From: Bacillota bacterium
GTDB taxonomy: Bacteria > Bacillota > Bacilli > Paenibacillales > UBA4045
Assembly: GCA_023441055.1 (NCBI GenBank)
Contig: JAEZQY010000029.1
Location: 207,328-271,327, forward strand
Reading direction: 5' to 3'
DNA: 64,000 nt
The notes under the pieces were generated by a model, which was not told the DNA's origin, did no database searches, and saw only the letters and a list, made by a program, of their open reading frames with translations. Positions 10,011 through 40,408 of the stretch are shown one piece after another (position 1 is the first letter of the stretch; each line of letters opens with the position of its first letter). The position numbers and the translations under genes are program-made.

Positions 10011-10094
10011 CTGCTCCTCTGCACGTAAGGTATGAACAGGCCGTATTATTATGATTCGAATACCATAAATTATGCAGAGTAGGATTTAATCAAC

Positions 10095-10286: not shown

Positions 10287-10308
10287 GATACGCAGCAATC
10301 ATCTCAAT

Positions 10309-11364
10309 TTAGCGGAAGTGCTCCGCGGCCTCGGCAGCAATGCTCTCTGGCGCCTTTAAGCTCAGCGATTCACTATGCAGGAAGTTCAAGGTATGGATAT
10401 CGCTAGTTCCTAAAGCGCCATACGTAAGCCGCGGCACCAGACGAATATGCGCCCGACCCGAAGATGGCTGAATGGGGATGAACATAGCCAGGTTAAAGCT
10501 AGCCAGTCCCTTCTCGTTCAAATAGGGGAAGAAGCGCATCATACTGTTCGCAATTGCCTCGCAGCCGGATGCATCTAGCTCCGTGAATGAATGTACGCCT
10601 TCGAACACCCCGATGAAATCCATATGACTTCGTGGAGCGAAGGCGTGCACCCAGTTCAATTGGTTCTGTTGCCCGACCCAGCGAACACCGAGGCGTCGCT
10701 CTTCCTCGATCAAGGCTCCATAATAATCTGCACCATGCTCCTTATAATAGCGTTGAACTGCTGCAGAAGTGACTGCCTGATAGCGCGTCGGATGCTCCGA
10801 GGCCAGCACCTGGATATGCGGATGCAGAATGCTTCCACCCGAAGGGGGGAGATAGTTCCAATTGATTGACACATGCTTCACGGTTGGATCGGTGGCAATG
10901 ACCTTCTCCAGATATCGATGGGCGAGTAGGAAGGCATCGCTTATGCGATCTGCAGTAAATTCCTCCAGCCTCGTGTAATGCTGCTTCGTTATACGGATAA
11001 CGGCGTTATGCTTGGCATAGGGGAACAGGTTAGGGAATAGGACCGCTTCCCCCTTCTCCATTCGCCCGCCCTCCATCACCTGATCCGGAAACTTAGGGGT
11101 AGCAGCCCGTACATTCTCCTCACAGAACGGACACCACCCCTTCGAGGCTTCCTCTGTGTAATCCGGCGGCGCGAACGGCGCTCCGGGATCGAACAGAATC
11201 CGTGATGTCTCCCCTGTCAAGGGGTCATACCGAATTTCCGTTGCCCGGTCTATCAGCTTACCGTCTTGCATAGGGTCATGAAGTGTTAACCATTCCTGTT
11301 CCTTGCGAAATGTAATCGTCACTGGACAGCCCTCCATTGCATCTGCTTTTATCGAGCATACCAT
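10309..11364 (-). CDS. GalT-like HIT-superfamily nucleotidyltransferase (galactose-1-phosphate uridylyltransferase family)
   Basis: CPFCEEN zinc motif and HPHIQV (HxHxQ) active-site motif. Start is uncertain (ATG at 11364 or 11337), neither with a clear SD. Confidence 0.65.
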   Translation of the reverse strand: MVCSIKADAMEGCPVTITFRKEQEWLTLHDPMQDGKLIDRATEIRYDPLTGETSRILFDPGAPFAPPDYTEEASKGWCPFCEENVRAATPKFPDQVMEGGRMEKGEAVLFPNLFPYAKHNAVIRITKQHYTRLEEFTADRISDAFLLAHRYLEKVIATDPTVKHVSINWNYLPPSGGSILHPHIQVLASEHPTRYQAVTSAAVQRYYKEHGADYYGALIEEERRLGVRWVGQQNQLNWVHAFAPRSHMDFIGVFEGVHSFTELDASGCEAIANSMMRFFPYLNEKGLASFNLAMFIPIQPSSGRAHIRLVPRLTYGALGTSDIHTLNFLHSESLSLKAPESIAAEAAEHFR

Positions 11365-14515: not shown

Positions 14516-15760
14516 GTGGTGGTGAATGTGGTCAGTCGGTTGCTGAAGCTTGCCGTTGGCGGAGTATTTGCAGCATTGCTGCTTAAAGGTCTACTTGGGG
14601 GAGCAGCCGCGCAAGCCGCGGATTCCCCGATCGTTGTACATGTTGATGGCGAGGCGCTCGATTTCAATATTGAACCTAACCTGCAGGCAGGGACAACCCT
14701 CGTGCAGATGAGACCGATCTTCGAAGCATTAGGACTGGCATTAATCTGGGACCCTAGTACACGCAGCATTACTGCGACTAAGGAAGGCTATACCTTGTCC
14801 ATGACCTTGGGCAGCGATATCGCAACCGTGAACGGACAGCAAGTGAAATTAGCGCGGCCGGCGGCAGCGGTAGATGGCCACACGATTGTTCCGCTGCGCT
14901 TCGTAGGCGAGGCAACCGGGGCTTTCGTCCATTGGAACGGTGTAGGCCGGGAAATTCTTGTGATGTCGGAAGCATACATGGCAAATCTGGGCATGACACG
15001 GGCTGAGGTGGAGGACCTCATGGATGAATTACAACGAGAGCTCGATGAAGAACATGCGCGGAAGGTCGCTGAAACAAAGGAAAAGGAAGCTGTCGCTAAG
15101 TCTGAACCGAAGCCATTAATCAAGGTGGATGAGAGCAAGCTGCAAGGGATGTTCTATGGATTCGAGAATGACTTCGGCGGGTACGAATGCGGGGGAATGT
15201 GCTGGAGATTCTATACGTTCCTGCCTGACAGCCAGGTCGTTGTAGGCGAGCCTGCCGGCGGCGGACCGGAGACGATTAATTGTAAGGTGGATGCATGCCT
15301 GACCTATTCCATCAAGGATGGACAGCTGCATATGACTGGGCAAGAATCCCTCAGCATCGGTCAGACGGAGGAAGGTGTCCTCGTTATTAACGATGCTTAC
15401 CTTAGTAAGGCAGAGCCTGTCGCTGACCGATACAAGCTGGACGGCACATACGTGACAAGAGGCTATCAAGGGTTTGTCGGCATTACGCCATTCTCATCCT
15501 CGTGGACCAAATACCTGACCTTCTATGCGGATGGAACGTTCGAGAGTGACAGCACCTCATTAGGCATATTAGATACGGGCTCCTCCCATACAAGCGGGAC
15601 TGTTGCACCCGACACGGTTAAGGGAACTTATCATATCAACGATAATACGATCACGCTGAACTATCCAGATGGCACGACAGCCAAGCATGTCTTTATCCTT
15701 GACAATGAGGGCGACCTGCAGATTGGCGATAACAATTACAGCTTGGCTACTGAGGAGTAG
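14516..15760 (+). CDS. secreted copper-amine-oxidase N-terminal (stalk) domain protein
   Basis: Signal peptide ending AAAQA|AD. Stalk-domain repeats (...TLVQMRPIFEALGLALIWD..., ...HTIVPLRFVGEATGAFVHWN...). GTG start after a GGGAGG SD. Confidence 0.7.
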   Translation: MVVNVVSRLLKLAVGGVFAALLLKGLLGGAAAQAADSPIVVHVDGEALDFNIEPNLQAGTTLVQMRPIFEALGLALIWDPSTRSITATKEGYTLSMTLGSDIATVNGQQVKLARPAAAVDGHTIVPLRFVGEATGAFVHWNGVGREILVMSEAYMANLGMTRAEVEDLMDELQRELDEEHARKVAETKEKEAVAKSEPKPLIKVDESKLQGMFYGFENDFGGYECGGMCWRFYTFLPDSQVVVGEPAGGGPETINCKVDACLTYSIKDGQLHMTGQESLSIGQTEEGVLVINDAYLSKAEPVADRYKLDGTYVTRGYQGFVGITPFSSSWTKYLTFYADGTFESDSTSLGILDTGSSHTSGTVAPDTVKGTYHINDNTITLNYPDGTTAKHVFILDNEGDLQIGDNNYSLATEE

Positions 15761-16320: not shown

Positions 16321-17277
16321 TCATCGGTCGATTCGTTCCGGAAGCCCCAATTGGGAAAATAAATTCGCATTAATAAAATTCTGAACGTGGAAAATGTGAT
16401 TGTTCTTCACTTCAATGACATGAATACCCCATGGCACCAAATCGGACGAATCCGGGCTGGGCACATACTGCGCCAACGCGGGATAACCGCCATTCACTAA
16501 TGTCGGCAATAACTTAGACCCGACACAATGCCACCGCGTCACCTCGAAGAACTTGGACAAGTCGTCCTGGCCACTTATCCACATTGCGAATGGCGGCATG
16601 GACATGCAGCCTTCCTCATGAAACAGGGCCACAAGTGCTTGAATATCGAATTGTTCGAAAGCCTCCACATAACGTGAGAGAAGTCCCTGATCGGGGACAG
16701 TATCCATCCTGCTGTATTCATCAGAGCGAAGCTTCGTTCGGTCCAGCGTCTCCCTGGCTCGCTGCAAGGCGCTGTTCACCGCCGCCGGTGACATAACTAA
16801 TGTCTCCGCGATCTGCTTCGACGACCATTCGAACACATCCTTCAGAATGAGCACCGCACGCTGGCGGGGCGGTAAGGCCTGCAAGAGCGCGATGAAGCAG
16901 AGCTGCAGGGTATCCTTGCGAACAACAACATCCTCCGGGCTTTCGCCAAACTCGGGTGATGGCCAAATCCAGGACGAATCGGGCAATGTTTCGCTAGGCT
17001 CGACTATGGAGGACGCCGGGTCTGACAGGTCCAGCGGAAGCACTCTGCGCTTGGCTTGCCTCAGCTTGTCCAAGCATAAGTTCGAGGCGATGCGGTAGAT
17101 CCATGTCTTCATGGAAGAATCCTGCCTGAACGTGCTCCAGCTTTGCCAGGCCCGAATATAGGTTTCCTGGACAACATCATCCGCATCATCGAATGAACCT
17201 AACATGCGGTAACAGAATGAGGTTAATCCGGGCTTTATGCGCTCAAATCCATTCAAATCAAATGCGGTATCGTTCAT
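16321..17277 (-). CDS. ECF sigma-70 factor with fused C-terminal SnoaL/NTF2-like domain (ECF41/ECF56-like architecture)
   Basis: Region 2 (DDADDVVQETYIRAWQSW), region 4 (LPPRQRAVLILKDVFEWSSKQIAETLVMSPAAVNSALQRAR) and a ~130-aa extension. SD GAAGGAGG places the start at the ATG at 17277. Confidence 0.8.
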   Translation of the reverse strand: MNDTAFDLNGFERIKPGLTSFCYRMLGSFDDADDVVQETYIRAWQSWSTFRQDSSMKTWIYRIASNLCLDKLRQAKRRVLPLDLSDPASSIVEPSETLPDSSWIWPSPEFGESPEDVVVRKDTLQLCFIALLQALPPRQRAVLILKDVFEWSSKQIAETLVMSPAAVNSALQRARETLDRTKLRSDEYSRMDTVPDQGLLSRYVEAFEQFDIQALVALFHEEGCMSMPPFAMWISGQDDLSKFFEVTRWHCVGSKLLPTLVNGGYPALAQYVPSPDSSDLVPWGIHVIEVKNNHIFHVQNFINANLFSQLGLPERIDR

Positions 17278-17324
17278 CTTTGCCTCCTTCATTGAGTACC
17301 CTTCGATCAGTTTCCCCTTTCCCC

Positions 17325-22475: not shown

Positions 22476-22946
22476 TCATTCTTGTGTTAAATTTATAATG
22501 ACCTCTTTAGGAGTATAATAATCGCAATTTGTAATTACTTTAAATCCCTTGTCCCAGGTTAGCACAGGAATCCCTTGTTCCTTACTTATAACACTTAGTT
22601 TTATATCAATCAAATCCAGCTTAAGAGTCGGATACAACTTCAGAGTTTCACGTATTGTTGCACTTGCCTCAACACCGTCTGCTTCAATAAGAACTGTGAT
22701 CATCTTCGCAATTCTCTCACGAGGTACTTTATACATCTTTTCCATTACAAATACCATTTCTTCAACGACGGCATCAGAAAAGACAAGTATGATCTTACCT
22801 TCATTTATAAGTCGAACAAGCTGTTTTGTATAGGTGACCATACTTGTAATCATTTCCTCTTGCGCATCACTAACCGCTGCCGCAATATCTTGATCGCCAA
22901 CTAGAATTCTTAACCCTATGTTGGCATCTGCTGTGAACTTTCGCAT
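22476..22946 (-). CDS. PIN-domain (VapC-like) toxin
   Basis: N-terminal acidic motif (..TADANIGL..) and C-terminal ...LDLIDIKLSVISKEQGIPVLTWDKGF.... Lies 17 nt downstream of an AbrB-type antitoxin gene. Confidence 0.6.
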   Translation of the reverse strand: MRKFTADANIGLRILVGDQDIAAAVSDAQEEMITSMVTYTKQLVRLINEGKIILVFSDAVVEEMVFVMEKMYKVPRERIAKMITVLIEADGVEASATIRETLKLYPTLKLDLIDIKLSVISKEQGIPVLTWDKGFKVITNCDYYTPKEVIINLTQE

Positions 22947-22963
22947 AAAAATTTCTCCCCCTA

Positions 22964-23239
22964 TTATGTCTGACGGGCCAAGTCATCAGCAATCATCTCC
23001 TCACGGTATTGATCTCTGACTTCTCTTACGTCTATCAACGGTTGATCGAGATCATCCCAGATCCCAAACGCATCTAATATTGATTTTCTTTTAATGCCAC
23101 GAACAATTACTTCATCACCAATATATTCAAACTCTAACCTATCGCCCTCTCCAATACCGAGTATATTTCTAAGTTTAATAGGTATCGCAACAACTCCCTT
23201 AGCCGACAACTTTCCAGTCTCTACTTTGTAATTTTCCAT
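22964..23239 (-). CDS. AbrB/MazE/SpoVT-family antitoxin
   Basis: SpoVT-AbrB swapped-hairpin motif ...KGVVAIPIKLRNILGIGEGDRLEFEYIGDEVIV... Confidence 0.7.
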   Translation of the reverse strand: MENYKVETGKLSAKGVVAIPIKLRNILGIGEGDRLEFEYIGDEVIVRGIKRKSILDAFGIWDDLDQPLIDVREVRDQYREEMIADDLARQT

Positions 23240-28335: not shown

Positions 28336-29142
28336 TTACTTCATAGGCTGGCTGGATTGCATGGCATGACTCTTATAATCCGTAGGTGAGACACCGAACT
28401 GCTTCTTGAACATTCTGCTGAAGTAGAATTGATCACTGATTCCAACCGCTGAAGCGACCTCCTTCATATAGGTCTGGCCTTTCATAATTAATTCCGCTGC
28501 CTTGTTCATCCGTATATAATTGATATATTGAAATAAGCTCATCCCTACTTGCTCCCTGAATACGCGGCTCAAGTAGTTCTCGCTGAAATTAACATGATTC
28601 GCGATCATTTCTAATGTAAGCTTATCCCGGTAATGCAACCCGATATAGCTAATGACATCGGCAATTTCTTTCTTAGTCACAGTCGAATCAACAGCTCCAG
28701 GAGCATCTGTCCAGAAGCTCAGAGTATCAAAGGCTTCCACGGCGTTCGTTAATACCGCCTCTGAGCTTTTACTTTCCCATACCTTGGTTTTATTCGCCTC
28801 ATATTGCTCAGCATTCATCACTGTAATTTTATTGTCGCTTAGCGGGATATAATCCAAGCATTTGTTGATGCAGGTTTTCAGTGCCGAAGGATGAATCCGA
28901 TGCTGATGGCATTGTTCTATAAAGGTTTCTACCATCAGCGGAATAGAAGCACTATCATCATTATATAAAGAAGACAGAATGGATTTGGAGAAATCCACAT
29001 AGTTCATGAATGCGATGTCATGATGGAAGACGATGTCATCGCAACGGATAACGGAATGTTCTTCATAGAAGGTAATCGCGATAGCTTCTTTACAAGCCTG
29101 ATACTTCTGCCTAGCCTCTTGATAACCGTATAGCTCCAGTCT
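28336..29142 (-). pseudogene. AraC-family (possibly YesN-type) regulator, 5'-truncated
   Basis: The C-terminal AraC HTH is intact (...NYLSRVFREQVGMSLFQYINYIRMNKAAELI...ISDQFYFSRMFKKQFGVSPTDYK). The frame stays open 45 codons upstream of the listed ATG (29007) to a TGA at 29143-29145, with no start or RBS. Composition changes abruptly there. Confidence 0.6.
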
Positions 29143-29191
29143 TCATTGTTGGTGTGCTATTACGCATTGATTTTCCGCGCCTAGTGTATAT

Positions 29192-29316
29192 ATGTTAATG
29201 TCACAAGACGCGAAAATAGGAATGTTTGTGTCACAGGATCACTACAAAAACATTCCTACGTAAATAGTGGATAGCCATGATGTTATACTATTCTTAAAAT
29301 GTATGTTGGTGTCACT
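29192..29316 (+). repeat. three direct copies of ATGTTnnTGTCAC at the island's left edge, plus a 10-bp inverted repeat
   Basis: atgttaatgtcaca (29192), atgtttgtgtcaca (29222), atgttggtgtcact (29303). aggaatgttt/aaacattcct flank the second copy. A weaker copy, ttgttggtgtgcta, lies at about 29147. Confidence 0.6.
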
Positions 29317-29421
29317 GTATACCCCTTCACTCTTCATTATAAACAATAGTCCGATCCTAAATTGATAGATTTTCTAGTCCAGAACTTGTCCATAATCGCC
29401 AAATGCCTAAACAAATGATTC

Positions 29422-30108
29422 CTACCTGCTATCAAAATGGAGGTAAGCATGCTTAAGTTGTGCTTTATTATGAATATTTTTTTCTTGATAGTTTATATTG
29501 AAATTGTCGATGATTATGGCTGCCGCTTTTCCGCTTAAGTCTTCCTCCCACCCATCAACACCAAGTATTTCTTTAGCCTCTTCATCATTTGAAAAAACGA
29601 TGATTGGATCTCTTAAATCGTGGGATAATCTCGGCAAGTTGTTAGACGTGGCTTCATCAACTGTAAAGAGTAGCGTTCCCTCCCCTGTTGCATCAATATC
29701 TGTATACAGGAATTTTCCTGTTAAAATAGTTGTGCCAGTGAATTGAATAGTTCCAACTGGTATATCATCCGAATGAGATATGTTTAATTCCTCCACCTCC
29801 ATGCCGGCAATTGTGTTTCCCCTTTTTGTATTATTGGCGGAGAATATATTCGTATCATTAATGGTGATTGTTTTATCCGATTCATTATAATTTACTCTTG
29901 CACCTAGATTCTCAGCAATAAATCTTACAGGGACATACGCCCTATTATTGTAATTTATCGTTACATACCCTTCTTCTACATTCATTTTGTGATTATTTAT
30001 CTCGTATGAAACTGGGAAAAGAATTGCTTCTATAGAATCTTTAGCGTAAACAATTGATGAAGAAAATATAGTTACTAACCCAAGAACTAATAATATTTTA
30101 TTCTTCAT
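29422..30108 (-). CDS. secreted copper-amine-oxidase N-terminal (stalk) domain protein
   Basis: Signal peptide MKNKILLVLGLVTIFSSSIVYA|KD and ...NNRAYVPVRFIAENLGARVNYNESDKTITIN.... Start taken at the ATG at 30108. Confidence 0.65.
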   Translation of the reverse strand: MKNKILLVLGLVTIFSSSIVYAKDSIEAILFPVSYEINNHKMNVEEGYVTINYNNRAYVPVRFIAENLGARVNYNESDKTITINDTNIFSANNTKRGNTIAGMEVEELNISHSDDIPVGTIQFTGTTILTGKFLYTDIDATGEGTLLFTVDEATSNNLPRLSHDLRDPIIVFSNDEEAKEILGVDGWEEDLSGKAAAIIIDNFNINYQEKNIHNKAQLKHAYLHFDSR

Positions 30109-30124
30109 AATGGACCTCATTTCA

Positions 30125-31717
30125 TTATTTATAGAACAAATTGAAGGTTTTATCGATAATATTACCAAGTTCTTGGCCACGAACTTGATTTTCTAAAAAT
30201 TCAGCTATTTTAATATCGAAGTCTTCATCAATATTTTTTGAAAATGTACTGTTGAGGAATAAATCGTTATATTGTTCAGAGTCAGCTAAATTAAATAAAT
30301 CTAATATCTTATGATAAAACCATACCGAATCTAATGTTTCTTCGTTATTGATACCGGCCTGATAACCCCATTGTATCCAACTATCTTGCAATTTAACAGC
30401 ATTGTCAAACAGGGTAGGAAAAAGCATGGTTTTGAATTCTTCATATTCTTTTGACACATTGAAATCTTCTATTTCTGTGTACATATAATTTTTGTATTCA
30501 TTCCAATGAATATTAAAACTCTCCATCTGGTCTTTATCCCAGTAATATTCTGGTTCATGTGAACGTGGATCAAACTTGGAAATAGGTCTTCCCTCTTTAT
30601 CTACATAATAGGACCAGTAATTACTTCCAGTTACATTATTAATGATTCGCCATAAAGAAACACTTTCTAGTGAATGGTAATGATCAGTGGGAATCGGCTC
30701 TAAATCCTGGGAAATCAATATTTCATTTCGTCCCACAAGTTTTGGGGCGATTATTAAGTGAGCTTCATACTCATGTTCTTCACTTAAACTGTTTGTCCTG
30801 TGTATGGCATAAAAAGTAGTGTCATTTAAAGGTTCGGGGACAAATTCAATAAAGTCCTTTGAAACAAATCCCTCGTATTCATTTATAAAGGGGTTTTTCT
30901 CCATACTACTGTCGTGATCTTCCATCATAGATGTAGCATCTTCGTTTAATATATGAATGCGTATTTTATAATATTCTGTTCCTTCATCGGACAGGATGAT
31001 CCCGCTCTCTCCCCTCATTAACTCAAACCATTCCTCGGTTCCCTTAATATCTTTAAGAAAGGGAATGTTGTTGTCGTTGATATAAAATACTTTATCTTCG
31101 CCCTTATACTTTGGCATGATTAGGCTTTTTTCGCTCCTATCCACCTCGTTAATCCATGTTGTCTTCATCTGTGTAGTCAATTTATTCGGACTCAGAACTA
31201 GTTCTTTCGTGGATTCATATTTCGACCCATCGACAAACGTCAAGTTATCCGGGAGATAAAGTATTACAAGTTCAGGCGGCAAGGTTTGATTGATTGATCC
31301 TATTGATATTTTGTTATTATCTATCGAGTAAAAGTAATTATTTAGATTTGATTCGGAATTTTCCATTCCAATAGGTATATATCTCCCGCCCTGAAAAAAG
31401 TAAACCCCATAATCGGAGTTCTCCGCAATGTCTTGACCGAAAGTTATTTCAATTTTTTGATCCAAGGAGGAACTATAATTAATTATAGAATTATCAAAAT
31501 CATTGTCGTTATACAGCCCGTATTTAAACCCTGGGATTGTTATTGATACAATGCTCTTCCCTCTCTCGTCTTGTTGTGGGCTTACGCTTATCTCATTATG
31601 CTTAAGTTCCGACAATCTCGGGTAATAAAACACTAAAGTGCAAATAGCAACAATTGCTATGGAGATCCATATATATCTTTTATAGTTAATGATAATCCCT
31701 CCTCGTTCATACAACAA
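30125..31717 (-). CDS. N-terminally membrane-anchored hypothetical protein (about 530 aa), no recognisable family
   Basis: One TM helix (YIWISIAIVAICTLVFYY), then a Tyr/Asn/Glu/Asp-rich extracytoplasmic body. Long uninterrupted ORF within an operon. Start codon uncertain (see findings). Confidence 0.6.
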   Translation of the reverse strand: MLYERGGIIINYKRYIWISIAIVAICTLVFYYPRLSELKHNEISVSPQQDERGKSIVSITIPGFKYGLYNDNDFDNSIINYSSSLDQKIEITFGQDIAENSDYGVYFFQGGRYIPIGMENSESNLNNYFYSIDNNKISIGSINQTLPPELVILYLPDNLTFVDGSKYESTKELVLSPNKLTTQMKTTWINEVDRSEKSLIMPKYKGEDKVFYINDNNIPFLKDIKGTEEWFELMRGESGIILSDEGTEYYKIRIHILNEDATSMMEDHDSSMEKNPFINEYEGFVSKDFIEFVPEPLNDTTFYAIHRTNSLSEEHEYEAHLIIAPKLVGRNEILISQDLEPIPTDHYHSLESVSLWRIINNVTGSNYWSYYVDKEGRPISKFDPRSHEPEYYWDKDQMESFNIHWNEYKNYMYTEIEDFNVSKEYEEFKTMLFPTLFDNAVKLQDSWIQWGYQAGINNEETLDSVWFYHKILDLFNLADSEQYNDLFLNSTFSKNIDEDFDIKIAEFLENQVRGQELGNIIDKTFNLFYK

Positions 31718-31718
31718 T

Positions 31719-31748
31719 CATATAGGAGGGCATTCCCCCTCCTATATG
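31719..31748 (-). promoter_or_regulatory. intercistronic 12-bp-stem hairpin between the M23 gene and the 530-aa gene
   Basis: catataggaggg-(6 nt)-ccctcctatatg, followed on the minus strand by ATTGTTGTATG. Confidence 0.5.
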
Positions 31749-31784
31749 ATTCCTGGTTTACACAAATTCATCGTTTCTTAGGGA

Positions 31785-33092
31785 CTAGTGTTCTATATTC
31801 CTAATAAAATCTCCTTCTACATTAAGTCTAGTTTGATTCTTATCTTGGAAGTTTCCAGACACAAGGTATTCCTTACCTACGGAAAGCTCAGGGGCAAGAG
31901 CTGGGTATAACACATTAATGACATAGCTATCATCATTTGAAATTACTTCCCATTCATTTTCCCCTACATTTCTCACCAGTTCCACGCTGTTAATAAAATC
32001 GAACTCCAGGACGTTCACTGTATCAGGGATGTCCACTTTAACTGGTTCTACTGCAGTGGCATACATAGATTCCGTATAGATATCGGAGTTAGCACCCTTC
32101 GCTAGCAATGAAGTGCTTACAAAGAATGGTCTATCCGTAGGGGCCTGATTATCATACCGGTATGGTCTATATCCTGTATAATATGTTGTCCCATTATACG
32201 AGTTGTTCTCTGCCTCGACGTAGTATTGGAGGGTATCAGAGGTCCCATAGAGAGGTGTTAAGTTGCCTGTAAATGTGATATCATCTGATGCTACCGTCAT
32301 AGATGTACTACTCCATGATGTCATGTTACCATTTTTATAGAACAGCTTTACCTTACTCGGAGGGGATGTTCTTAAGACACCACTATAAATTGACTGGATT
32401 TGAAACGTTACCGACGATGAACTTGCTGCTGTTCTTGTTATAAAGGACATCTTATTTGCATAACTTCCACCCTTATGTTGGTAGAAGTATGATGGCGCAT
32501 ATCTTTTCATGGTATTTGTATCAGTAGCTGAGGCACCTCTAAATTCTAAATGCAAGTGAATCGGATAAGAGCTCTCCGTTGTGCCTGATCCACCTGTTTG
32601 ACCAATATTCGTTGTATTTGTTACGGAAGTAGCGCTAGTAACGTTAACACTTGCTAAATGTGCATAAAAAGACTGCACATAGTAATCTGTTCCCCCAGAG
32701 GTTACTTTGTGTTGGACAAGGGCATATCTACCATATGTGCTTCCTAATGTAGTCCTTAATTGGTAGACCTCCCCGTTCCCTAGAACACTGAAAGCATCTC
32801 TACCAGCCGTTCCTGTAGCATTCCTTGAACGTAAATCAACACCAGCATGACCGGATGTTCGGGGCTCGCTATATGGTGCAGTAATAACTACATCATCGTC
32901 GGTGCCTGTACCTGTGTCTCCAACTCTTAATGCGCTCTTCGCATTAATTGTTACTGAACTAATTGTAGGATACCCTGACTCTGATACTTCATCCGCTTCC
33001 ATGAATAGGTGTGCTGCGAAACCCGCTGAAGGGAAAACTGAAATAACCATTAATAGTACCATTAAGAAAGAAAAAGCATGACGAATTTTCAT
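31785..33092 (-). CDS. secreted M23-family metallopeptidase with unassigned ~250-aa C-terminal extension
   Basis: HxxxD (GHAGVDL), YAHL, and HxH (IHLHLEF) motifs. Signal peptide ...VFPSAGFA|AH. SD GGAGG before the ATG at 33092. Confidence 0.75.
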   Translation of the reverse strand: MKIRHAFSFLMVLLMVISVFPSAGFAAHLFMEADEVSESGYPTISSVTINAKSALRVGDTGTGTDDDVVITAPYSEPRTSGHAGVDLRSRNATGTAGRDAFSVLGNGEVYQLRTTLGSTYGRYALVQHKVTSGGTDYYVQSFYAHLASVNVTSATSVTNTTNIGQTGGSGTTESSYPIHLHLEFRGASATDTNTMKRYAPSYFYQHKGGSYANKMSFITRTAASSSSVTFQIQSIYSGVLRTSPPSKVKLFYKNGNMTSWSSTSMTVASDDITFTGNLTPLYGTSDTLQYYVEAENNSYNGTTYYTGYRPYRYDNQAPTDRPFFVSTSLLAKGANSDIYTESMYATAVEPVKVDIPDTVNVLEFDFINSVELVRNVGENEWEVISNDDSYVINVLYPALAPELSVGKEYLVSGNFQDKNQTRLNVEGDFIRNIEH

Positions 33093-33575
33093 CTTCAATT
33101 CCTCCATCTTCATTTTTTTAAAAACTCCCAACTTCGCTCTTAACCAGATGAAAGGGCAGCTATAAACCTTTGTTATCCATTCGCATGACCCCCAATTATC
33201 ATTTATTAGGCGACTGGAAAGTGTGAAACTAAATTATGACGGCCTTACTTATATAGACTTATGGTTCGTCTCCCTTATAACGTTTTCATAACTAATTACT
33301 ATTCTAAACAATGTCCATCTTCTAATAGTGTTTCTATCATGCAATCGTTCCGACAGAAGAATAACGAATCATTGCCGCAATATGAAGATTGTAAACTCAG
33401 ATCATAAGGGGAACTACCCGAAGGAATATTGTATTATATATTTAACATCAAGCTATAAAGTCCAAACTATAATATCATTATATGTAATTGGGTCATTCTC
33501 GAAATATTGGTGTGATTTTGATCTCTCATATTCATATTCTTATTTAGAATTAAGAGAAGGGACAGTGCTAATGAA

Positions 33576-34142
33576 ATGAAATGGTACTACCTGCTACATC
33601 AATTAGATACTCTTCCTTCAGAAATACAGAAGACTATTTACCAGTATTTTTTTGATGCGTTTTATAAAGATGTGTACTATATCCTGAAGGATCACTCACT
33701 AACGGAAGATATAATTCAAGAATCTTTTATGAAAGTAATAACAACATCGCAGAAGTATGAGGTGAAAAACCCCAGTTCATGGATGAAACAGGTGGTTCGG
33801 AATCACACAATAGATTATTTAAAGAAAGTAAAAAAAGTGCGTTATTCAGAGGAGTATAATGACATCTCTATAACTGAGGACTATTTATTTGACAATGATT
33901 CGCTCTTCGTCGAGGATGAAGTTGAGAAATCCCTTGAAATCGAAGCATTACGCCACTCTATACTTGAATTGAAACAAGACTATCAACTATTAATTAAGCT
34001 TCACTATATTGATGAACTGTCTTATAAAGAGATTGCAACGACATTGAATTTATCAGAACCAGCAGTAGGCCAAAAACTACTCCGTGCAAGAAAGAAGCTG
34101 TTAAAGATTTTTAAACGGAAATGGGTGAACGGTAGTGAGTAA
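33576..34142 (+). CDS. ECF-type sigma-70 factor
   Basis: Region 2 (...HSLTEDIIQESFMKVI...W..QVVRNHTIDYLKK) and region 4 (...LIKLHYIDELSYKEIATTLNLSEPAVGQKLLRARKKL). Confidence 0.8.
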   Translation: MKWYYLLHQLDTLPSEIQKTIYQYFFDAFYKDVYYILKDHSLTEDIIQESFMKVITTSQKYEVKNPSSWMKQVVRNHTIDYLKKVKKVRYSEEYNDISITEDYLFDNDSLFVEDEVEKSLEIEALRHSILELKQDYQLLIKLHYIDELSYKEIATTLNLSEPAVGQKLLRARKKLLKIFKRKWVNGSE

Positions 34143-34911
34143 TAACAAGTCTCACAGAGAAGAGTTAATCAAAGAGGTAATACAGCGAATTTACGATGAG
34201 ATTGAAGTACCAGATAGTACAGCGTCATGGAAAGTAATTGAGAAACGCTTGAAGAGAAGAAAGCGTGTTAAAAGAAGTATGAGAATGTTGCAATTAAGTA
34301 GTGTTATTATTATATGTGCATTTATGATGAATTTATTATGGATGGCCGTGTTACCTACAGCCCACTCGCAAATTTCAGAGTTATTTAAAAAGATGAACGA
34401 CAATTTCACGGAAATCTTCCACAAGGATACGAAGCAACCTTCTATCGATAAGGCTAGAACAACAGTACCCCCAGATGATTCAAATGATGGAAGTGCGGAT
34501 AATAATTCGATTAAAGATGTCTCCTTTGAGTATGCAAAGGATAGAACATCGTTTCGACTAAAGGAGCCTACTTACATTCCAAAAGGTTATGAGGTAGAGG
34601 TTGTGCGTGCATTTGAAAGTTCCGGAGTAATCAGCAATGTTCAAATGAAATATAGTAATTCAGACCAAGAAGTGATAACTATAATGCAACAAAAGGTTGA
34701 AGCTGATTCGCATACTCCAATTAAATCTACAATTGCTGTTGATTCGGGTACTTTCAAAGATGTCACTATTAATAATAGTCGGGCAATACTACTGATAGCG
34801 AACAAAGGGAACTCCGTTATAGAATGGGTCGAGGAAGGTGAAATAATTATACGTATATCTGGGGCATTAACAGAAACAGAAATCATTAAGATTGCTTCTT
34901 CATTACAATGA
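34135..34911 (+). CDS. single-pass anti-sigma factor with DUF4367-like extracytoplasmic domain
   Basis: GTG start overlaps the sigma stop by 8 nt. Short cytoplasmic N-terminus, one TM helix (LQLSSVIIICAFMMNLLWMAVL), and a C-terminal domain with ...LKEPTYIPKGYEV.... Confidence 0.65.
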   Translation: MSNNKSHREELIKEVIQRIYDEIEVPDSTASWKVIEKRLKRRKRVKRSMRMLQLSSVIIICAFMMNLLWMAVLPTAHSQISELFKKMNDNFTEIFHKDTKQPSIDKARTTVPPDDSNDGSADNNSIKDVSFEYAKDRTSFRLKEPTYIPKGYEVEVVRAFESSGVISNVQMKYSNSDQEVITIMQQKVEADSHTPIKSTIAVDSGTFKDVTINNSRAILLIANKGNSVIEWVEEGEIIIRISGALTETEIIKIASSLQ

Positions 34912-35037
34912 GAAGGAGGATATCCCCTAGGGGTTCTGATAGTTTTTTAATTGAAGAGAAACATGCATTCCGTTCCCTTTAGATGATTCCCTAGAATAAG
35001 TACCCGCTTTTTGGTGATTTACTTATACAAATAGTTG

Positions 35038-35063
35038 ATTCCCCGCAGTAAGCTGCGGGGAAT
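35038..35063. terminator. hairpin between convergent genes
   Basis: attccccgcag-taag-ctgcggggaat. Confidence 0.5.
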
Positions 35064-35076
35064 CATAAAGGAAAGA

Positions 35077-35544
35077 TCAGTCAACCACAAGTAGCGACGA
35101 GGTATACCTCACCCCATCCTCAAGGACATTATTATACTCAACCCAATGAGTCGTTTTTATTCGGTAATAATAACCAGTTAATACATTTATCTTTCTACTG
35201 GAGAATGAATAGGAATCGTTATAAAAAACAGAGTTAGCCCCAAAATCCTCATTGATCCACACACTACCAGTCCATCTTTGTAAGGTGACCTGGACTCCAA
35301 CCACATCCACATCAAATGTAGCAAACGTGTGTCCATAAACGCTCACCTCTCCATCACCCAAATCGAACATCCCCCCATATCCATCTTCCAAGTAGTCATA
35401 GCTTGGATCGAAAATAGTGTAAGGCATATAATTTGGTGGTGGTCCCGTCAACGGTTGAGTTGTCGAGGCAATTGCCTGCGTGGGGACAATTAGTGCAAAT
35501 GCAATCGTAATTCCAATGAATAACTTCACATACTTGTGTGACAA
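35077..35544 (-). CDS. small secreted beta-rich hypothetical protein
   Basis: Signal peptide ...LIVPTQAIA|ST. No family recognised. Confidence 0.5.
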   Translation of the reverse strand: MSHKYVKLFIGITIAFALIVPTQAIASTTQPLTGPPPNYMPYTIFDPSYDYLEDGYGGMFDLGDGEVSVYGHTFATFDVDVVGVQVTLQRWTGSVWINEDFGANSVFYNDSYSFSSRKINVLTGYYYRIKTTHWVEYNNVLEDGVRYTSSLLVVD

Positions 35545-35765
35545 TTAAATCCCTCCTCAAAATGTGCTTACATAAATATAAGACGGCGCATTTCGAGGTT
35601 ATATAACGATATTAATCAGGAAAATGTTAAAAATATTTTATCCATCATGAAATGGTATGAATAAATAGTTTTCATGGAAACTAGGTAGCACTTTCGCATC
35701 CCATACAACAAAACCCTAGTAATAATTTCATTTGCGTTTGAGGCGTCAATTTGATTAATCCCTCA

Positions 35766-36083
35766 CTAGAAAAATACTTGTATAATCCATCTAGCGTGAA
35801 TGACCATAATGAGGATGTAAACGAAAATGATAACTCGCAATAGCCATAAGAATAAAACACTTAAAAACTTAACTTCTTCAAATTTATAGGAAAACATCCC
35901 CACACCAAACATGATAGCTGATATCCATATCTTCAGAAATAGAAAACTTAGGGGATGCGTGAATAACAAGGAGTTCATAAACGGGTTCATTTCAATCATA
36001 TATCCGCTAACATAGCCCAAATACGACACGACTCCATCAAGAACGTTTAATAGTGCAAACACGAAAAACAACCTCTTCAACAT
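35766..36083 (-). CDS. DUF5658-family small membrane protein
   Basis: ...LLNVLDGVVSYLGYVSGYMIEMNPFM... with 3-4 TM helices. Confidence 0.55.
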   Translation of the reverse strand: MLKRLFFVFALLNVLDGVVSYLGYVSGYMIEMNPFMNSLLFTHPLSFLFLKIWISAIMFGVGMFSYKFEEVKFLSVLFLWLLRVIIFVYILIMVIHARWIIQVFF

Positions 36084-36109
36084 AAAGTATCAGCTCTCTT
36101 ATAACTTTA

Positions 36110-36757
36110 GTTTTCTCAATCACAAAACAAACTGGCGACATCCTTATTCATATATTCAAAGTTGCACTGAGCCCTCCATGCTTTTTCTAACCAAATCGTT
36201 TACTTATAGAATAGGCCAGTCGGGCTGTAGAACATCGGCATCAAGTACGTTTTACCGTCGTTATAGGGATTCGTAATTGTCGTGTCTGTGAATCCAGGAA
36301 TGATCTTCTCACTTACAGTGAACTCCTCACCAGGTACCTTCATAGCGAGTACATCCGTCAGATCCGTCATATTGTTATCCTTGACGAAGGTTTCTGTAAG
36401 CCCTTTCGGTTGACCTACTGCTAAATGGATAGCGTCTGGGAAATCACCGGATTTCATCGTTGGTCCGATAACATCCTCGATGTTCTTCTCAATGGTCATC
36501 TCAACCTTGACACCAGGAACCTTGCTCTCGAATGCAGCGGCTACTTCTTCCCATACCGCCTTACCATAAGCCGTCTCCAGTGCCGCGAACTTCATTGTGC
36601 GAACCTCATTAGAGGAACCATTAGACGAGCCGTTCGATGAGCTATTAGCTGGGTTGCTTGATGAATTGCTTTGCTCTGAATTGCCATTCGATGAACCACA
36701 AGCGGCCAGCATAACTACCATCATCACCGCAAGTACTAAGGCTGCCATCTTTTTCAT
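36110..36757 (-). pseudogene. N-terminal fragment of a family-1 sugar ABC substrate-binding lipoprotein (inverted relative to its C-terminal half)
   Basis: SD GAGGAGG, MKKMAALVLAVMMVVMLAAC|GSS lipobox, Ser/Asn linker, and N-lobe to ...YLMPMFYSPTGLFYK-TAA. The same frame continues SBP-like (TIWLEKAW..NFEYM..). Confidence 0.7.
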
Positions 36758-36827
36758 TCTGTTACCCTCCTCGATTTTTGGAATAACGAATACCGTGCTA
36801 TTCATTCCTCTCTACTTTCACTATCAG

Positions 36828-37580
36828 ATTACCTTTACAAAATCATATCCGGAATACTTGGAGGAAATCCTATATCCATCACTGGCGAATGCCGCTGGCC
36901 TTGCACAGCTGAAGAGAATTTATGCATTCGAGCCCGGCTCCTTTCAGACTGCGTCTGTAAAAAAGGTGTTGGACACGATTGCCAGGATCGGAAACGGTGG
37001 GTATTTGATGGAGGGGACAGTCGGACTTAATCACACCCAATCCCAAACCGATATGATGCTTGGCAAAGCCATATTCATCGTGAATGGTTCATGGATGGAG
37101 AATGAAATGAAGGATGCGCCAAGAGAAGAGGGCTTCGAATTCGGGATGATTCCTGTGCCTGTGTTCAATGCAGGGGATGAACGTTATATCCTTTCTAGTT
37201 ATGAGCAATTCTCTATCCCGCTTAAGGCCAAGAACCCTGAGCTTGCGAAGGAGTTCTTGAAGTTTCTGTACACCGAGGAATCCGTCATCTTATTCGCAGA
37301 GAAGTCCAACGGTACCTTCGCGCTGAAAGGAGCGCAGGAGCTTTCGCGAAACTATCTCACCCCTGGTGTGTATGATATGCTCAGCGCTTATGAAGGAGCG
37401 ACGGCTATTACGCAGGAATGGCATATTATCCCTATGCAATTCAAGGAGGATATTCGAAATCAATTGTTCAAAAAAGCGATAACGCCGATTATGACAGGAC
37501 AAATGACCACGGAGGAATGGATGAATCAAGTGGAGAAGGCGTTTGCCGACATCCAATCCACGATGAACACACCGCAATAA
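36828..37580 (+). pseudogene. C-terminal fragment of the same substrate-binding protein
   Basis: ITFTKSYPEYLEEILYPSLANAAG...GTVGLNHTQSQTDMMLGKAIFIVNGSWMENEMKDAP...NPELAKEFLKFLYTEES.... No start, RBS or signal peptide. The listed ORF's first ~75 codons are antisense read-through of the N-fragment. Confidence 0.7.
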
Positions 37581-37584
37581 CAAG

Positions 37585-38478
37585 CTAGCTATCCTCACTA
37601 GTTGACGTGCGAACGTATGTCGGTCGGAATGCACTCGGCGGCATGCCTGTCCATCGGCGGAATTGCCTAGAGAAATGGCTCGCCGACTGAAATCCGAGCT
37701 GTTCTGCTAATTCCTCCATCGAATAAGTCGAATGCACAAGCAGATGCTTCGCCTGATTCAGAACCAGCTTACTCCGATACTGTCGCGGTGATTGCCCGTA
37801 CACCTTGTTGAATACATGCGTGCAGCGGCCGCGACTGATCCCCAATGAAGCTGCAATTTCAGCGATACTCGCATGATCACCATTCCGCAATTTCTCTTCA
37901 ATCGCGTGGGCCAGCTCCGTCTCAACGACTGAGGCATTCTGCAACTGGTCATCACGCATCGGCGTCTTACGCTGTACGTCATCGTTGTACTTGATGAATT
38001 CACTAATGATGCCTAAGGTATGCGTCTGGATAATCAGGCGATTCAACGCTTTGTCATCATCAACCGTATCGATATGATGATTGTGAGAGAGCGCATGCTC
38101 TATCGCGCTTGCATGCATCGGCAGCGATAGCTGAGCAGCCTCCTCTGCATGAATGAGCATATAATCGGTCCTGCATAACCATTCACGTATAATGGGGTCA
38201 TCCAAATCGAAGTGCAAATTAAAGAAACGATAATCAGCAGCCGGACCGTTCTCAGAAGCATGTGATATACCGGACTTTATTAACAGCCAATCTCCGCTGC
38301 TAAACGCGAAGTCATGATCCCCTATCGTCTGCTTGATTGCCCCCTCCTTGCAATGCAACAGTTCAAAGAGGTAATGATGATGTCTGGGGAAGGACCAATT
38401 CGGATGGAAATTGCCCACATGACAACCGATAATCTGCAAGGTGCTCGTTAAATTAGGAAGCGAATACTGAATATCCAT
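37585..38478 (-). CDS. AraC-family regulator with cupin-type sensor domain
   Basis: N-terminal cupin (..FPRHHHYLFELLHCKEG..) and C-terminal HTH (...ELAEQLGFQSASHFSRQFRRWTGMPPSAFR). Divergent from the GH35 gene. Confidence 0.8.
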   Translation of the reverse strand: MDIQYSLPNLTSTLQIIGCHVGNFHPNWSFPRHHHYLFELLHCKEGAIKQTIGDHDFAFSSGDWLLIKSGISHASENGPAADYRFFNLHFDLDDPIIREWLCRTDYMLIHAEEAAQLSLPMHASAIEHALSHNHHIDTVDDDKALNRLIIQTHTLGIISEFIKYNDDVQRKTPMRDDQLQNASVVETELAHAIEEKLRNGDHASIAEIAASLGISRGRCTHVFNKVYGQSPRQYRSKLVLNQAKHLLVHSTYSMEELAEQLGFQSASHFSRQFRRWTGMPPSAFRPTYVRTSTSEDS

Positions 38479-38647
38479 CGTCTGTAGCCCTCCTGGTTCC
38501 CAATCCTATAGTCGTATTCTAGCGTAATGCCATTCATAACAAAAGGTCAAATTTAACGTCCCTTTGTCCATTTGTTTGATTATTCTTTCCGTTTAGAATA
38601 AGAAGCATCACAAGTCTTAACCACTACATTGCATTGGAGGTCGCTTA

Positions 38648-40408
38648 ATGATGAACCTATTGTCTGTTCATGAGGATCATTTCTATATGGATAACAAGCC
38701 GATTCGTCTGCTTTCCGGAGCGATTCATTACTTTAGAGTCGTACCCGAATATTGGCGGGATCGATTGCTGAAGCTGAAGGCATGCGGCTTTAACACGGTG
38801 GAAACCTACGTACCATGGAATTTACATGAGCCTGCGCCTGGCACCTTTCACTTTGAAGGCATGGCTGATATTGAAGCTTTTATTCGATTAGCAGGCGAGC
38901 TAGGCTTGCATGTCATCGTGCGTCCTAGCCCTTACATCTGCGCAGAATGGGAATTTGGAGGCTTACCGGCCTGGCTGCTTGCCGATCGAGATATGCAGCT
39001 TCGCTGTATGTACCGGCCCTATCTAGATAAGGTAGATGCCTATTACGATGAGCTACTGCCTAGACTAAAGCCTCTGCTTGCCACCAGTGGCGGTCCGATT
39101 ATCGCCATGCAGATCGAGAATGAATATGGCAGCTATGGCAACGATACAGCCTATCTGCAATATTTGGAGCAAGCGATGATCCGTCGTGGCATGGATGTCC
39201 TATTATTCACTTCTGATGGACCAGAGCATCATATGCTACAAGGAGGTTTGGTTCCAAACGTTCTAGAAACCGCAAACTTCGGTTCAAGAGCTGAGGAAGC
39301 GTTCGAGATGCTTCGTCGTTATCAACCGGAAGGCCCGCTTATGTGTATGGAATACTGGAATGGCTGGTTTGATCACTGGGGTGAGGAGCATCATGTTCGT
39401 GACGGTGGGGAAGTTGCGCAGGTGTTCGAGGATATGCTTGCTCTAGGCGCCTCTGTGAACTTCTATATGTTCCATGGCGGCACCAATTTCGGCTTCAATA
39501 GCGGAGCGAATGGCCTGGAGCGCGATCATTATGAGCCTACGGTTACAAGCTATGACTATAATGCGCCACTGAATGAAGCAGGAGATCCCACAGAGAAGTA
39601 CTATGCGATACGAGACATTATAGCGAAATATACGGATCTTCCTGAGATGGAAATTCCTCAAGCATTACCCAAACAGGCGTACGGCACTGTGCAGGCAACT
39701 AGCAAGGCGGTATTGTTCGATCAGCTGCATCAATTGTCTGAGCCGATCCAGGCTGTGGTTCCAGAGCCGATGGAGCGCTACGGACAGAGCAACGGGTTTA
39801 TCGTATACGAAACATTTATTTCGGGACCACGCGAAGAGAAGGAAATTATGATTCAAGACTGCCATGACCGAGCGTTGGTGTTCTTGAATGATAAGTGTAA
39901 AGGAATTATCGAGAGATGGGATTCCAGTAAGAAGGTGTATGTTGAAATTCCTGATGGCGGAGCTCGCTTAAGAATATTGGTTGAGAATATGGGACGCATC
40001 AACTACGGACCGTATCTGGCTGATCGCAAAGGCATCACCGAGGGTGTTCGTCACGGTAACCAATTCCTATATGATTGGACCGTTTGGACATTGCCGCTTG
40101 ATAACTTGAAGCCTTTATCCTTTGCAGCTATCGAGCATGAAACCACCACTGGTCCAGCATTCTATCGTGCAGAATTACACATCGAGAACACACCAGCAGA
40201 TACATTCTTGAAGCTGGAGGGATGGTCGAAGGGAGTCGTCTACGTCAACGGATTCAATCTGGGCAGATACTGGAAGGTGGGCCCTCAACAGACACTCTAC
40301 ATTCCTGCACCGCTCTTGCGCCAAGGCCGTAATGAATTCATTGTATTCGATATCGACGGCACGGAAAGCTTATCCCTTCAGTTTGTAGATCAACCTGAAT
40401 TAGGGTAA
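38648..40408 (+). CDS. beta-galactosidase, glycoside hydrolase family 35
   Basis: ...GAIHYFRVVPEYWRDRLLKLKACGFNTVETYVPWNLHEP...ICAEWEFGGLPAWLL...IENEYGSYG.... SD GGAGG. Confidence 0.85.
   Translation: MMNLLSVHEDHFYMDNKPIRLLSGAIHYFRVVPEYWRDRLLKLKACGFNTVETYVPWNLHEPAPGTFHFEGMADIEAFIRLAGELGLHVIVRPSPYICAEWEFGGLPAWLLADRDMQLRCMYRPYLDKVDAYYDELLPRLKPLLATSGGPIIAMQIENEYGSYGNDTAYLQYLEQAMIRRGMDVLLFTSDGPEHHMLQGGLVPNVLETANFGSRAEEAFEMLRRYQPEGPLMCMEYWNGWFDHWGEEHHVRDGGEVAQVFEDMLALGASVNFYMFHGGTNFGFNSGANGLERDHYEPTVTSYDYNAPLNEAGDPTEKYYAIRDIIAKYTDLPEMEIPQALPKQAYGTVQATSKAVLFDQLHQLSEPIQAVVPEPMERYGQSNGFIVYETFISGPREEKEIMIQDCHDRALVFLNDKCKGIIERWDSSKKVYVEIPDGGARLRILVENMGRINYGPYLADRKGITEGVRHGNQFLYDWTVWTLPLDNLKPLSFAAIEHETTTGPAFYRAELHIENTPADTFLKLEGWSKGVVYVNGFNLGRYWKVGPQQTLYIPAPLLRQGRNEFIVFDIDGTESLSLQFVDQPELG

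Follow-up and report, generated by a model that had tools for sequence, protein, structure and literature searches.

A truncated pair of neighboring binding-protein genes and an AT-rich insert in a decayed carbohydrate locus of a Bacillota bacterium

We analyzed a 64,000-nucleotide (nt) stretch of the genome of a Bacillota bacterium (assembly GCA_023441055.1, contig JAEZQY010000029.1; hereafter, the window), in which, between positions 28336 and 40408, a truncated AraC-type regulator gene, an AT-rich block, and two facing fragments of solute-binding protein (SBP) genes lie side by side. This region is very probably the wreck of a nine-gene carbohydrate locus that is conserved in Paenibacillaceae; the ancestral gene order and orientation have been kept, and the locus has suffered two lesions and no inversion. 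Judged from sequence, the remnants of the response regulator and of two binding proteins, one belonging to a family of ~448 amino acids (aa; SBP448) and the other to a family of ~478 aa (SBP478), are three pseudogene relics, and the sensing and uptake cassette to which they belonged is dead; the AraC297 regulator, GH35, and RGL11 lyase genes next to the cassette are still intact. What the locus shows is ordinary decay of an accessory carbohydrate gene cluster, together with a small block gained by horizontal transfer; no gene was split by inversion there. The features discussed below are compiled in Table 1.

Table 1. Coordinates of the relics, flanking genes, and insert genes in the window
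Feature	Position	Strand	Description
Response-regulator fragment, residues ~273-545 of ~545	28336..29136	minus	Predicted pseudogene; 3' half of a YesN/AraC-type regulator; receiver and half of the linker gone
Foreign AT-rich insert, 7,067 bp	29137..36203		Replaces the 3' 60% of SBP448, two permease genes, DUF6903, the histidine kinase gene, and the 5' half of the regulator gene
Cu_amine_oxidN1-type secreted protein	29422..30180	minus	252-aa open reading frame (228 aa in the public assemblies L001 and L012); Pfam 1.6e-9
530-aa membrane-anchored protein	30125..31717	minus	Very small uncharacterized family; no Pfam, NCBIfam, PHROG, or PADLOC match
M23-type metallopeptidase-like secreted protein, 448 aa	31785..33131	minus	Signal peptide; HxxxD (HAGVD) and HxH (HLH) motifs in the translation
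Extracytoplasmic function (ECF)-type sigma factor, 188 aa	33576..34142	plus	Pfam Sigma70_r2 and Sigma70_r4_2; NCBIfam TIGR02937, 88.5 bits
Putative anti-sigma factor, 258 aa	34135..34911	plus	Pfam DUF4367, 6e-13; 8-nt overlap with the sigma factor gene
155-aa secreted protein	35077..35544	minus	Signal-peptide-like N-terminus; no family match
DUF5658 small membrane protein, 105 aa	35766..36083	minus	Pfam 2.5e-13
SBP-register patch, K*TIWLEKAWRAQCNFEYM	36147..36203	minus	Right edge of the insert; carries a TAA stop; 40-46% nt identity
SBP448 fragment, first ~185 codons (lipoprotein signal peptide and N-lobe)	36204..36757	minus	Predicted pseudogene; transport-type, 448-aa family; the TAA of the frame is at 36200-36202
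Retained divergent intergenic stretch, about 65-75 bp of ~347 bp	36758..36828		Aligned with the intergenic regions of five relatives and SBP478 codons 200-260
SBP478 fragment, last ~250 codons (C-lobe, residues ~229-478)	~36829..37580	plus	Predicted pseudogene; membrane-anchored 478-aa family; without a start of its own
AraC297 regulator, 297 aa	37585-38478	minus	Intact; 77% identity to the L002 ortholog over the full length
GH35 beta-galactosidase, 586 aa	38648-40408	plus	Intact; 87% identity to the L002 ortholog over the full length

Paralog assignment of the binding-protein fragments and the locus in relatives

As described in a first-pass annotation of this DNA, the two SBP fragments face each other head to head, with the ribosome-binding site (RBS; GAGGAGGG at 36765-36772), a lipobox signal peptide (…LAAC), and the N-lobe on the minus strand, and the C-lobe on the plus strand. 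The same annotation took them for two pieces of a single SBP gene, a claim that is contradicted by their affinities. When each lobe was scored separately against all 120 returned proteins, the outcome was cleanly bimodal: over 184 aa, the N-lobe shows 80.4% identity to P0042, P0044, and P0045, members of the ~448-460-aa lipoprotein family, versus 28-33% to the ~478-aa family, whereas the C-lobe, over 246-248 aa, shows 85.5% (P0001), 83.7% (P0002), and 82.5% (P0005) identity to members of the ~478-aa family, versus 28-32% to the 448-aa family. The two families co-occur on the same contigs, and full-length paralogs from a single genome, P0005 and P0045 of Paenibacillus sp. FJAT-27812, are only 30% identical to each other. 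A search with the concatenated pieces against 5.8 billion proteins yielded a best full-length match of only 56% identity, and in the resulting alignment the C-lobe is nearly identical to the top matches but the N-lobe is not, each lobe matching a different family. Pfam profiles detected only the C-terminal parts of SBP_bac_1 and SBP_bac_8 in the C-lobe fragment; the N-terminus of SBP478 is a hydrophobic, uncleaved-looking anchor that has no lipobox cysteine. The GC content of both fragments is 46.9-47.3%. On the strength of these identities, the N-lobe and the C-lobe derive from two different neighboring binding-protein genes, not from one; an origin from different paralogs, which the first-pass annotation had itself named as the finding that would speak against its model, is what the comparison returned.

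The locus from which the fragments originate was reconstructed from its relatives, the loci being collected from the genomic context of the 478-type protein (L002 and L003-L005) and from a genome scan with the AraC297 protein of the window, which contributed five further loci. Five relatives carry the cassette, namely, Paenibacillus sp. FJAT-27812 (L002), a metagenome (L003), Cohnella sp. AR92 (L007), Paenibacillus sp. 2TAB19 (L008), and Bacillus sp. FJAT-26390 (L010); the L003 locus (metagenome lineage) is also present in L004 and L005. In these genomes, the genes for the two permeases, DUF6903 (51 aa), the histidine kinase (HAMP/His_kinase/HATPase_c; 581 aa), and the response regulator (Response_reg plus AraC helix-turn-helix; 545 and 535 aa in L002 and L003, respectively) follow SBP448 in this order and in the same, leftward direction, and SBP448 is separated by a divergent intergenic region of ~347 bp from the rightward SBP478, beyond which lie the leftward AraC297 and the rightward GH35 genes. 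Tblastn searches with the nine L002 proteins recovered the same nine-gene order and orientation in L007, L008, and L010. In the window, the same queries matched the response regulator (query residues 273-538; 28339-29136, minus strand), SBP448 (1-193; 36149-36757, minus strand), and SBP478 (230-475; 36831-37568, plus strand), as well as the complete AraC297 and GH35, so that the surviving genes have the order and strands seen in the relatives. The intact right flank (37585..40408), with Pfam domains taken from the gene calls, provides the synteny anchor. The histidine kinase (HK581), the two permeases (perm296 and perm299), and DUF6903 have no orthologous match anywhere in the 64-kb window, the insert included, that is, neither a translocated copy nor a remnant. 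Because both full-length paralogs stand head to head in five relatives, the head-to-head geometry of the fragments is ancestral, and deletions explain the entire arrangement.

These observations bear directly on the model favored by the first-pass annotation, in which acquisition of an island was followed by a local 0.7-kb inversion of approximately 36110-36826 that split one SBP gene. The head-to-head fragments do span about one family member (alignment columns 1-186 or ~204, and then from 230), but the pieces belong to different paralogs, with 80% versus 30% identity for one and the reverse for the other, and the five relatives carry both genes, full length and divergent. The pieces are also not contiguous to within a few residues, as had been proposed: 44 alignment columns separate the end of the strong N-lobe homology from the start of the C-lobe homology, or about 25 if a weak patch beyond the stop codon is counted. 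Flipping 36110-36826 would not rebuild a gene; the product would be a 448/478 hybrid without a counterpart among known proteins, in keeping with the best match of only 56% for the concatenated pieces. Moreover, the inverted and direct repeats detected between 27.5 and 38.5 kb are short, low-identity chance pairs only, none of which pairs 36110 with 36826 or 29146 with 36826, and the earlier report that the breakpoints lack inverted repeats and that no recombinase family is found in the window was borne out. We rejected this candidate as extremely improbable. The alternative offered by the first-pass annotation, insertion of the island into the SBP gene followed by inversion of 29146-36826 as a block, accounts for the head-to-head geometry and nothing beyond; undoing this inversion would place the start of SBP448 by the regulator fragment, far from SBP478, against the conserved divergent arrangement, and the paralog mismatch applies to it as well, so that its probability is close to nil.

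The cassette is not intact in all relatives. In Paenibacillus sp. LHD-38 (L006 10001-13358; NZ_JAVIFU010000028.1), it was destroyed independently: AraC297 is followed, after 9 nt, by residues 1-315 only of the histidine kinase and then by an open reading frame (ORF) for a 468-aa DDE_5/DDE_Tnp_1 transposase, with nothing left of SBP478, SBP448, the permeases, DUF6903, or the regulator. Paenibacillus sp. YIM B09110 (L009 10001-20888) has the GH35/AraC297 pair but lacks the rest of the cassette; next to AraC297, it carries another two-component system and another ABC transporter (about 23-31% identity).

Several additional features of the locus were observed. The Ser/Asn/Gly-rich linker that follows the lipobox of the SBP448 fragment (SSNGNSEQSNSSSNPANSSSNGSSNGSSN; 36622-36700, minus-strand codons 20-50) is ~10 residues longer than in the L002, L010, and L007 orthologs, which suggests a repeat expansion in a low-complexity tether. 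A palindrome, GAATAACGAA-N5-TTCGTTATTC, located 20-45 nt upstream of the SBP448 start, is perfect in L008, has one mismatch in L002 and L010, and is present as a degenerate copy in the window (36781-36809); it may be an operator or a hairpin in the 5' untranslated region (UTR) of the transporter operon. The RGL11 rhamnogalacturonan lyase gene (1,491 aa) occurs in no relative's locus within 10 kb of the cassette, and just beyond it the window encodes a pair consisting of a MazE-like antitoxin and a PIN-domain toxin (~22476-23239; L012 18395-19158).

Junctions and the two lesions

Alignment of the window with the L002 locus by blastn yielded three colinear blocks (window/L002: 28347-29132/2785-3570, 36204-36794/9130-9691, and 36845-40408/10702-14272). 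Between the first two blocks, 5,559 bp of L002 (3571-9129) stand opposite window positions 29133-36203, and between the second and the third, 1,010 bp (9692-10701) stand opposite about 50 bp. At the left edge of the insert (junction A), homology begins in multiple alignments at about 29136-29137 (…GGAGCTATACGGTTATCAAGAGGC, minus strand); upstream of this point, identity is at the random level (12-16 of 57 nt), with no diverged in-register patch such as that found at the right edge. At the latter (junction B), homology of about 77% continues through …TTCTATAA and ends at 36204. The junction of the second deletion lies between 36822 and 36846 and enters SBP478 at codon ~229-233.

At junction A, the frame of the regulator remains open for 45 codons upstream of its listed ATG (29007), up to a TGA at 29143-29145, without a start codon or Shine-Dalgarno sequence, as the ORF listing reproduces. 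The conclusion drawn earlier from this frame, that the 5' part of the gene has been lost, holds: the full-length orthologs comprise 535-545 aa with an N-terminal receiver domain, and the fragment is 68 and 62% identical to the CheY plus AraC regulators of L002 (545 aa) and L003 (535 aa), respectively, from residue ~273 to the end, with no internal stops. Consistently, Pfam detects only HTH_18/HTH_AraC in the fragment and no Response_reg, whereas both domains are present in the relatives' orthologs. The GC content of the regulator fragment (42.1%) is lower than that of the SBP fragments (about 47%), and in the relatives the GC content of the cassette is 2-4 points below that of the surrounding 21-kb locus; because the fragment itself is GC-poor, the drop in composition that the first-pass annotation had seen begins before the true junction. 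The AT-rich block that it had described is real (36.5% GC over 29137-36203), but its right edge had been set at 36110, whereas strong homology resumes at 36204. Likewise, of the SBP-like frame that had been followed to about 36110, a weak in-register patch at 36147-36203 is retained, but the strong homology does not extend past 36204. On the other side of the SBP448 fragment, the proposed loss of sequence upstream of the SBP start is supported by the small remainder of the intergenic region, in the ~70 bp of which a scan for sigma-70 promoters found none.

Two lesions in an otherwise colinear locus account for this structure. In the first, ~5.56 kb, from codon ~185 of SBP448 to codon ~272 of the response regulator, was lost, and the 7,067-bp AT-rich foreign segment stands in its place; this lesion alone truncates both the 'AraC' gene and the N-lobe SBP gene, and with it went both permease genes, DUF6903, the histidine kinase gene, and the part of the regulator gene that encodes the receiver. 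The second is an independent deletion of ~1 kb, which took away the larger part of the divergent intergenic region together with codons 1 to ~229 of SBP478 and left the 5' UTR of SBP448 abutting the SBP478 C-lobe. Once the kinase, the regulator, and the permeases were gone, the orphan SBP478 would have been freed from selection, and the second deletion could have followed, although the reverse order is equally possible. Because the fragments carry no internal stops or frameshifts, the lesions in the cassette are probably not ancient.

It appears very improbable that unrelated contig ends were joined in error at any of the three junctions. The available assemblies are short-read only; nonetheless, three of them are 100% identical across all junctions, namely, the window itself, a Logan contig from SRR13358410 (55.8 kb; identical over 20.8 kb, all junctions covered), and an ENA SPAdes contig (357 kb, 23x coverage; identical over 21.5 kb, all junctions covered). 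Furthermore, no repeats of at least 25 nt at 80% or higher identity are present at or between the junctions, and random mis-joins would not leave the fragments arranged and oriented as in the ancestor; an assembly error that also kept the ancestral gene order and strand is very unlikely.

Composition of the insert and its entry into the locus

The composition of the insert sets it apart from the whole window (47.1% GC) and from the sequence to the left of 28336 (50.2% GC), with 29-43% GC per 500-nt window between about 29.1 and 36.2 kb. The seven proteins that it encodes are all missing from the syntenic loci of the relatives (L002-L010). Atypical composition together with absence from the relatives' site supports the earlier proposal that a foreign AT-rich block was acquired; of the further hallmarks of genomic islands, the signatures of mobility (an integrase or transposase, direct repeats, and a tRNA target) were not found, and no tRNA gene is present in the window.

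The ECF-type sigma factor of the insert contains sigma-70 regions 2 and 4 only, and the overlapping downstream gene encodes a DUF4367 membrane protein that is likely an anti-sigma factor. This pair is divergent from an operon for the M23-like, 530-aa, and Cu_amine_oxidN1 proteins. The M23-like protein scores 28.3 bits against Pfam Peptidase_M23 (PF01551), just under the gathering cut-off of 28.7, and its homologs P0122-P0127 are pre-annotated with PF01551. The family of the 530-aa protein is very small: an exhaustive HMMER search of 1.84 billion proteins returned only 24 representative clusters at E<=1e-3. Homologs of the M23-like protein (P0123, 57% identity; P0124, 49%) adjoin homologs of the 530-aa protein (~38% identity) in L013 and L015, so that the two genes form a conserved module found in three unrelated contexts (window 30125-33131, L013 10001-12919, and L015 10001-13287). 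L013 and L015 are Firmicute contigs in which the module occurs without the ECF pair, and in L015 it is flanked by sfsA and hflX within a housekeeping region; one of these two contigs has an overall GC content of 36%, like the insert. Because the module recurs elsewhere without the ECF pair and one of its host contigs is similarly GC-poor, the insert looks like composite cargo acquired by horizontal transfer from a low-GC relative. Control of the M23 operon by the ECF factor is, for the same lack of an ECF pair in L013 and L015, only a guess. In a more ambitious reading, the insert would be a self-contained, horizontally moving module with no recombinase of its own, the ECF/anti-sigma pair controlling a secreted M23 hydrolase and its obligate 530-aa partner for cell-wall competition or remodeling, and the SBP-like patch at its edge being the trace of homology-assisted capture at a carbohydrate locus; we regard this reading as rather doubtful.

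Potential regulatory structures were noted within the insert. A perfect 15-nt inverted repeat, AATCATATAGGAGGG/CCCTCCTATATGATT, with a 6-nt spacer (31716-31751), lies between the M23 and 530-aa genes, includes an AGGAGG sequence, and directly adjoins the TTG start codon of the 530-aa ORF; a role as an RBS-sequestering hairpin or as an intercistronic terminator is conceivable. A strong terminator-like hairpin (35036-35065; 13-bp stem, 8 GC) follows the 155-aa gene, and a 15-nt inverted repeat with a T-rich tail (29217-29258) follows the Cu_amine_oxidN1 gene, about 80 nt before junction A. Given these hairpins, transcription of the insert operon may stop within the insert and not continue into the regulator fragment. 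Elsewhere, the window encodes a second Cu_amine_oxidN1 protein (414 aa; 14516-15760) and another ECF-type sigma factor, which carries a fused NTF2-like domain (323 aa; 16321-17292), so that neither domain type is unique to the insert.

The origin of the insert was sought in several collections. Searches against plasmid and phage collections by blastn in distant mode gave no match, and neither did Rfam and PADLOC; PHROGs returned generic sigma factor and peptidase matches only. A word-indexed search for a donor matched only the 530-aa protein itself, and metagenome scans with the anti-sigma and DUF5658 proteins gave no match. No recombinase or transposase family was detected among the Pfam-marked called genes (~20-47.6 kb) or, elsewhere in the window, among ORFs encoding 150 aa or more. 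Because a site-specific signature is absent, we infer that the incoming DNA was joined by illegitimate, non-site-specific recombination, the intervening host DNA being lost simultaneously or later. The alternative that a mobile element (an insertion sequence [IS], transposon, or integrative element) delivered the insert, and that later deletions removed its recombinase, its ends, and the adjoining host genes, draws on the LHD-38 genome: the cassette there is broken next to a DDE transposase gene, so that IS activity does hit this locus in the group. In the window, in contrast, neither a transposase or integrase family nor a tRNA gene was detected, terminal repeats, whether inverted or direct, are lacking, and the insert has no phage, plasmid, or PADLOC match, which together make delivery by a mobile element unlikely.

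The right edge of the insert has a peculiarity of its own. Beyond the end of the strong homology, the sequence stays in the frame of the SBP448 orthologs for ~19 codons, reading K*TIWLEKAWRAQCNFEYM against N-E/A-G-L-L/F-E-Q-K-G-W-E-V-P-x-T-W-D-E-M. This patch matches the orthologs at 23-26 of 57 nt, compared with a mean of 14-15 (standard deviation 3.3) over all 57-mers of the insert, for an empirical p of 0.001-0.01, the length having been chosen after the data were seen. A hidden Markov model (HMM) of the family, built from 119 homologs, extends its match 11 residues into the patch, with a gain of 8.8 bits; the patch alone does not score against the SBP family HMM. It may derive from a distant SBP gene of which the incoming DNA carried the remains at its end, hinting at homology-assisted integration, or it may be due to chance. 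In the former case, incoming DNA with such a remnant would have crossed over in SBP448 near …MPMFYSPTGLFY, with an illegitimate join inside the regulator gene. This scenario accords with the 30-57 nt past the break that keep the SBP frame and register and with the HMM gain; in addition, 'FYK*TIW' is two substitutions away from the common 'FYNKTIW', the patch is AT-rich by eye like the insert, and junction A has no such patch. Yet the profile does not recognize the patch by itself, its length was picked in hindsight, a donor gene so divergent offers little identity for a homologous crossover, and the plasmid, phage, and metagenome searches did not find a donor locus. We hold homology-assisted entry to be improbable.

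Comparison with known systems and implications

YesM/YesN-type kinase/regulator pairs occur in carbohydrate loci of Bacillales. A three-component sugar sensor coupled to its cognate ABC importer has been studied in Ruminiclostridium cellulolyticum, where the binding protein CuaD, a lipoprotein, together with the kinase CuaS and CuaR, a 538-aa YesN/AraC regulator, controls cuaABC (PMC10384115; also PMC5663094). The cassette of the relatives resembles this system in having two paralogous SBPs, two permeases, a sensor kinase of ~581 aa, and a regulator of ~545 aa with a receiver, a long linker, and an AraC-type helix-turn-helix domain. It differs in that SBP478, with its uncleaved-looking anchor, has no lipobox cysteine, whereas CuaD is a lipoprotein. 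In the window, fragments of both paralogous SBPs, each full length in the relatives, and of the regulator are all that is left of the cassette, and because the receiver domain, the kinase, and the permeases are absent, the locus is a relic rather than a working member of such three-component systems.

Horizontally acquired islets can replace host genes by illegitimate or homology-facilitated illegitimate recombination, the latter reportedly described by de Vries and Wackernagel in 2002. The insert is similar to such islets in its atypical GC content, its absence in relatives, the loss of host DNA, and the lack of a site-specific signature, as well as in having one clean junction and one possibly homology-associated junction; it differs in that no donor was found in the plasmid, phage, and metagenome searches. 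With site-specific inversion switches, that is, Hin/Gin/Fim-type invertons and shufflons, the locus shares only the head-to-head geometry of two homologous coding fragments, whereas flanking inverted repeats and a recombinase are missing from the window, the fragments are not parts of one gene, and their orientation is ancestral. Pairs of ECF sigma and anti-sigma factors can control adjacent operons for secreted proteins, and the M23 family comprises peptidoglycan hydrolases of the LytM/lysostaphin type. The insert conforms to this pattern with its sigma factor of regions 2 and 4, the overlapping DUF4367 protein, and the divergent operon that starts with the M23-like HxxxD/HxH protein, but departs from it in that the M23 domain is just under the Pfam cut-off and the 530-aa partner comes from a tiny uncharacterized family.

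Several points weigh against the reconstruction of the locus as a two-lesion wreck with the ancestral arrangement preserved. The lesions may have occurred in either order, the insertion may or may not have coincided with the 5.6-kb loss, and no positive signature of the proposed recombination mechanism was found. A simple illegitimate join does not predict the in-register patch at 36147-36203. The genome scan with AraC297 revealed no conspecific genome, and hence none with an intact cassette, and the proteins encoded by the flanking genes share only about 77-87% identity with those of the nearest relatives; the ancestral state is for these reasons a parsimony inference. The three concordant assemblies, compared at the assembly level, may stem from one isolate or even one read set. 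Finally, the roles of SBP478 as the putative sensor partner of the kinase and of SBP448 as the putative transport SBP, as well as the nature of the ligand, are suggested by gene organization and by analogy only.

The principal outcome of this analysis is a correction: two adjacent, truncated, paralogous binding-protein genes can mimic a single gene broken by an inversion, and paralog-level identities combined with synteny in relatives are the only way to tell the two apart. Only two elements are mildly novel, namely, the rare module of M23 and 530-aa genes and the anomalous patch at junction B, the insert otherwise being one more uncharacterized ECF-linked block of secreted proteins, with a very rare protein family. 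With respect to the organism, the cassette for sensing and uptake, which in the relatives accompanies the GH35 beta-galactosidase and its AraC regulator, is gone from this strain, but the enzyme genes, including the one for the large RGL11 rhamnogalacturonan lyase, have been kept; the strain is thus predicted to respond differently to the cognate oligosaccharide or to take it up differently. The same cassette has independently been wrecked or is missing in two other Paenibacillus genomes, which fits a rapid turnover of accessory carbohydrate loci in this group.

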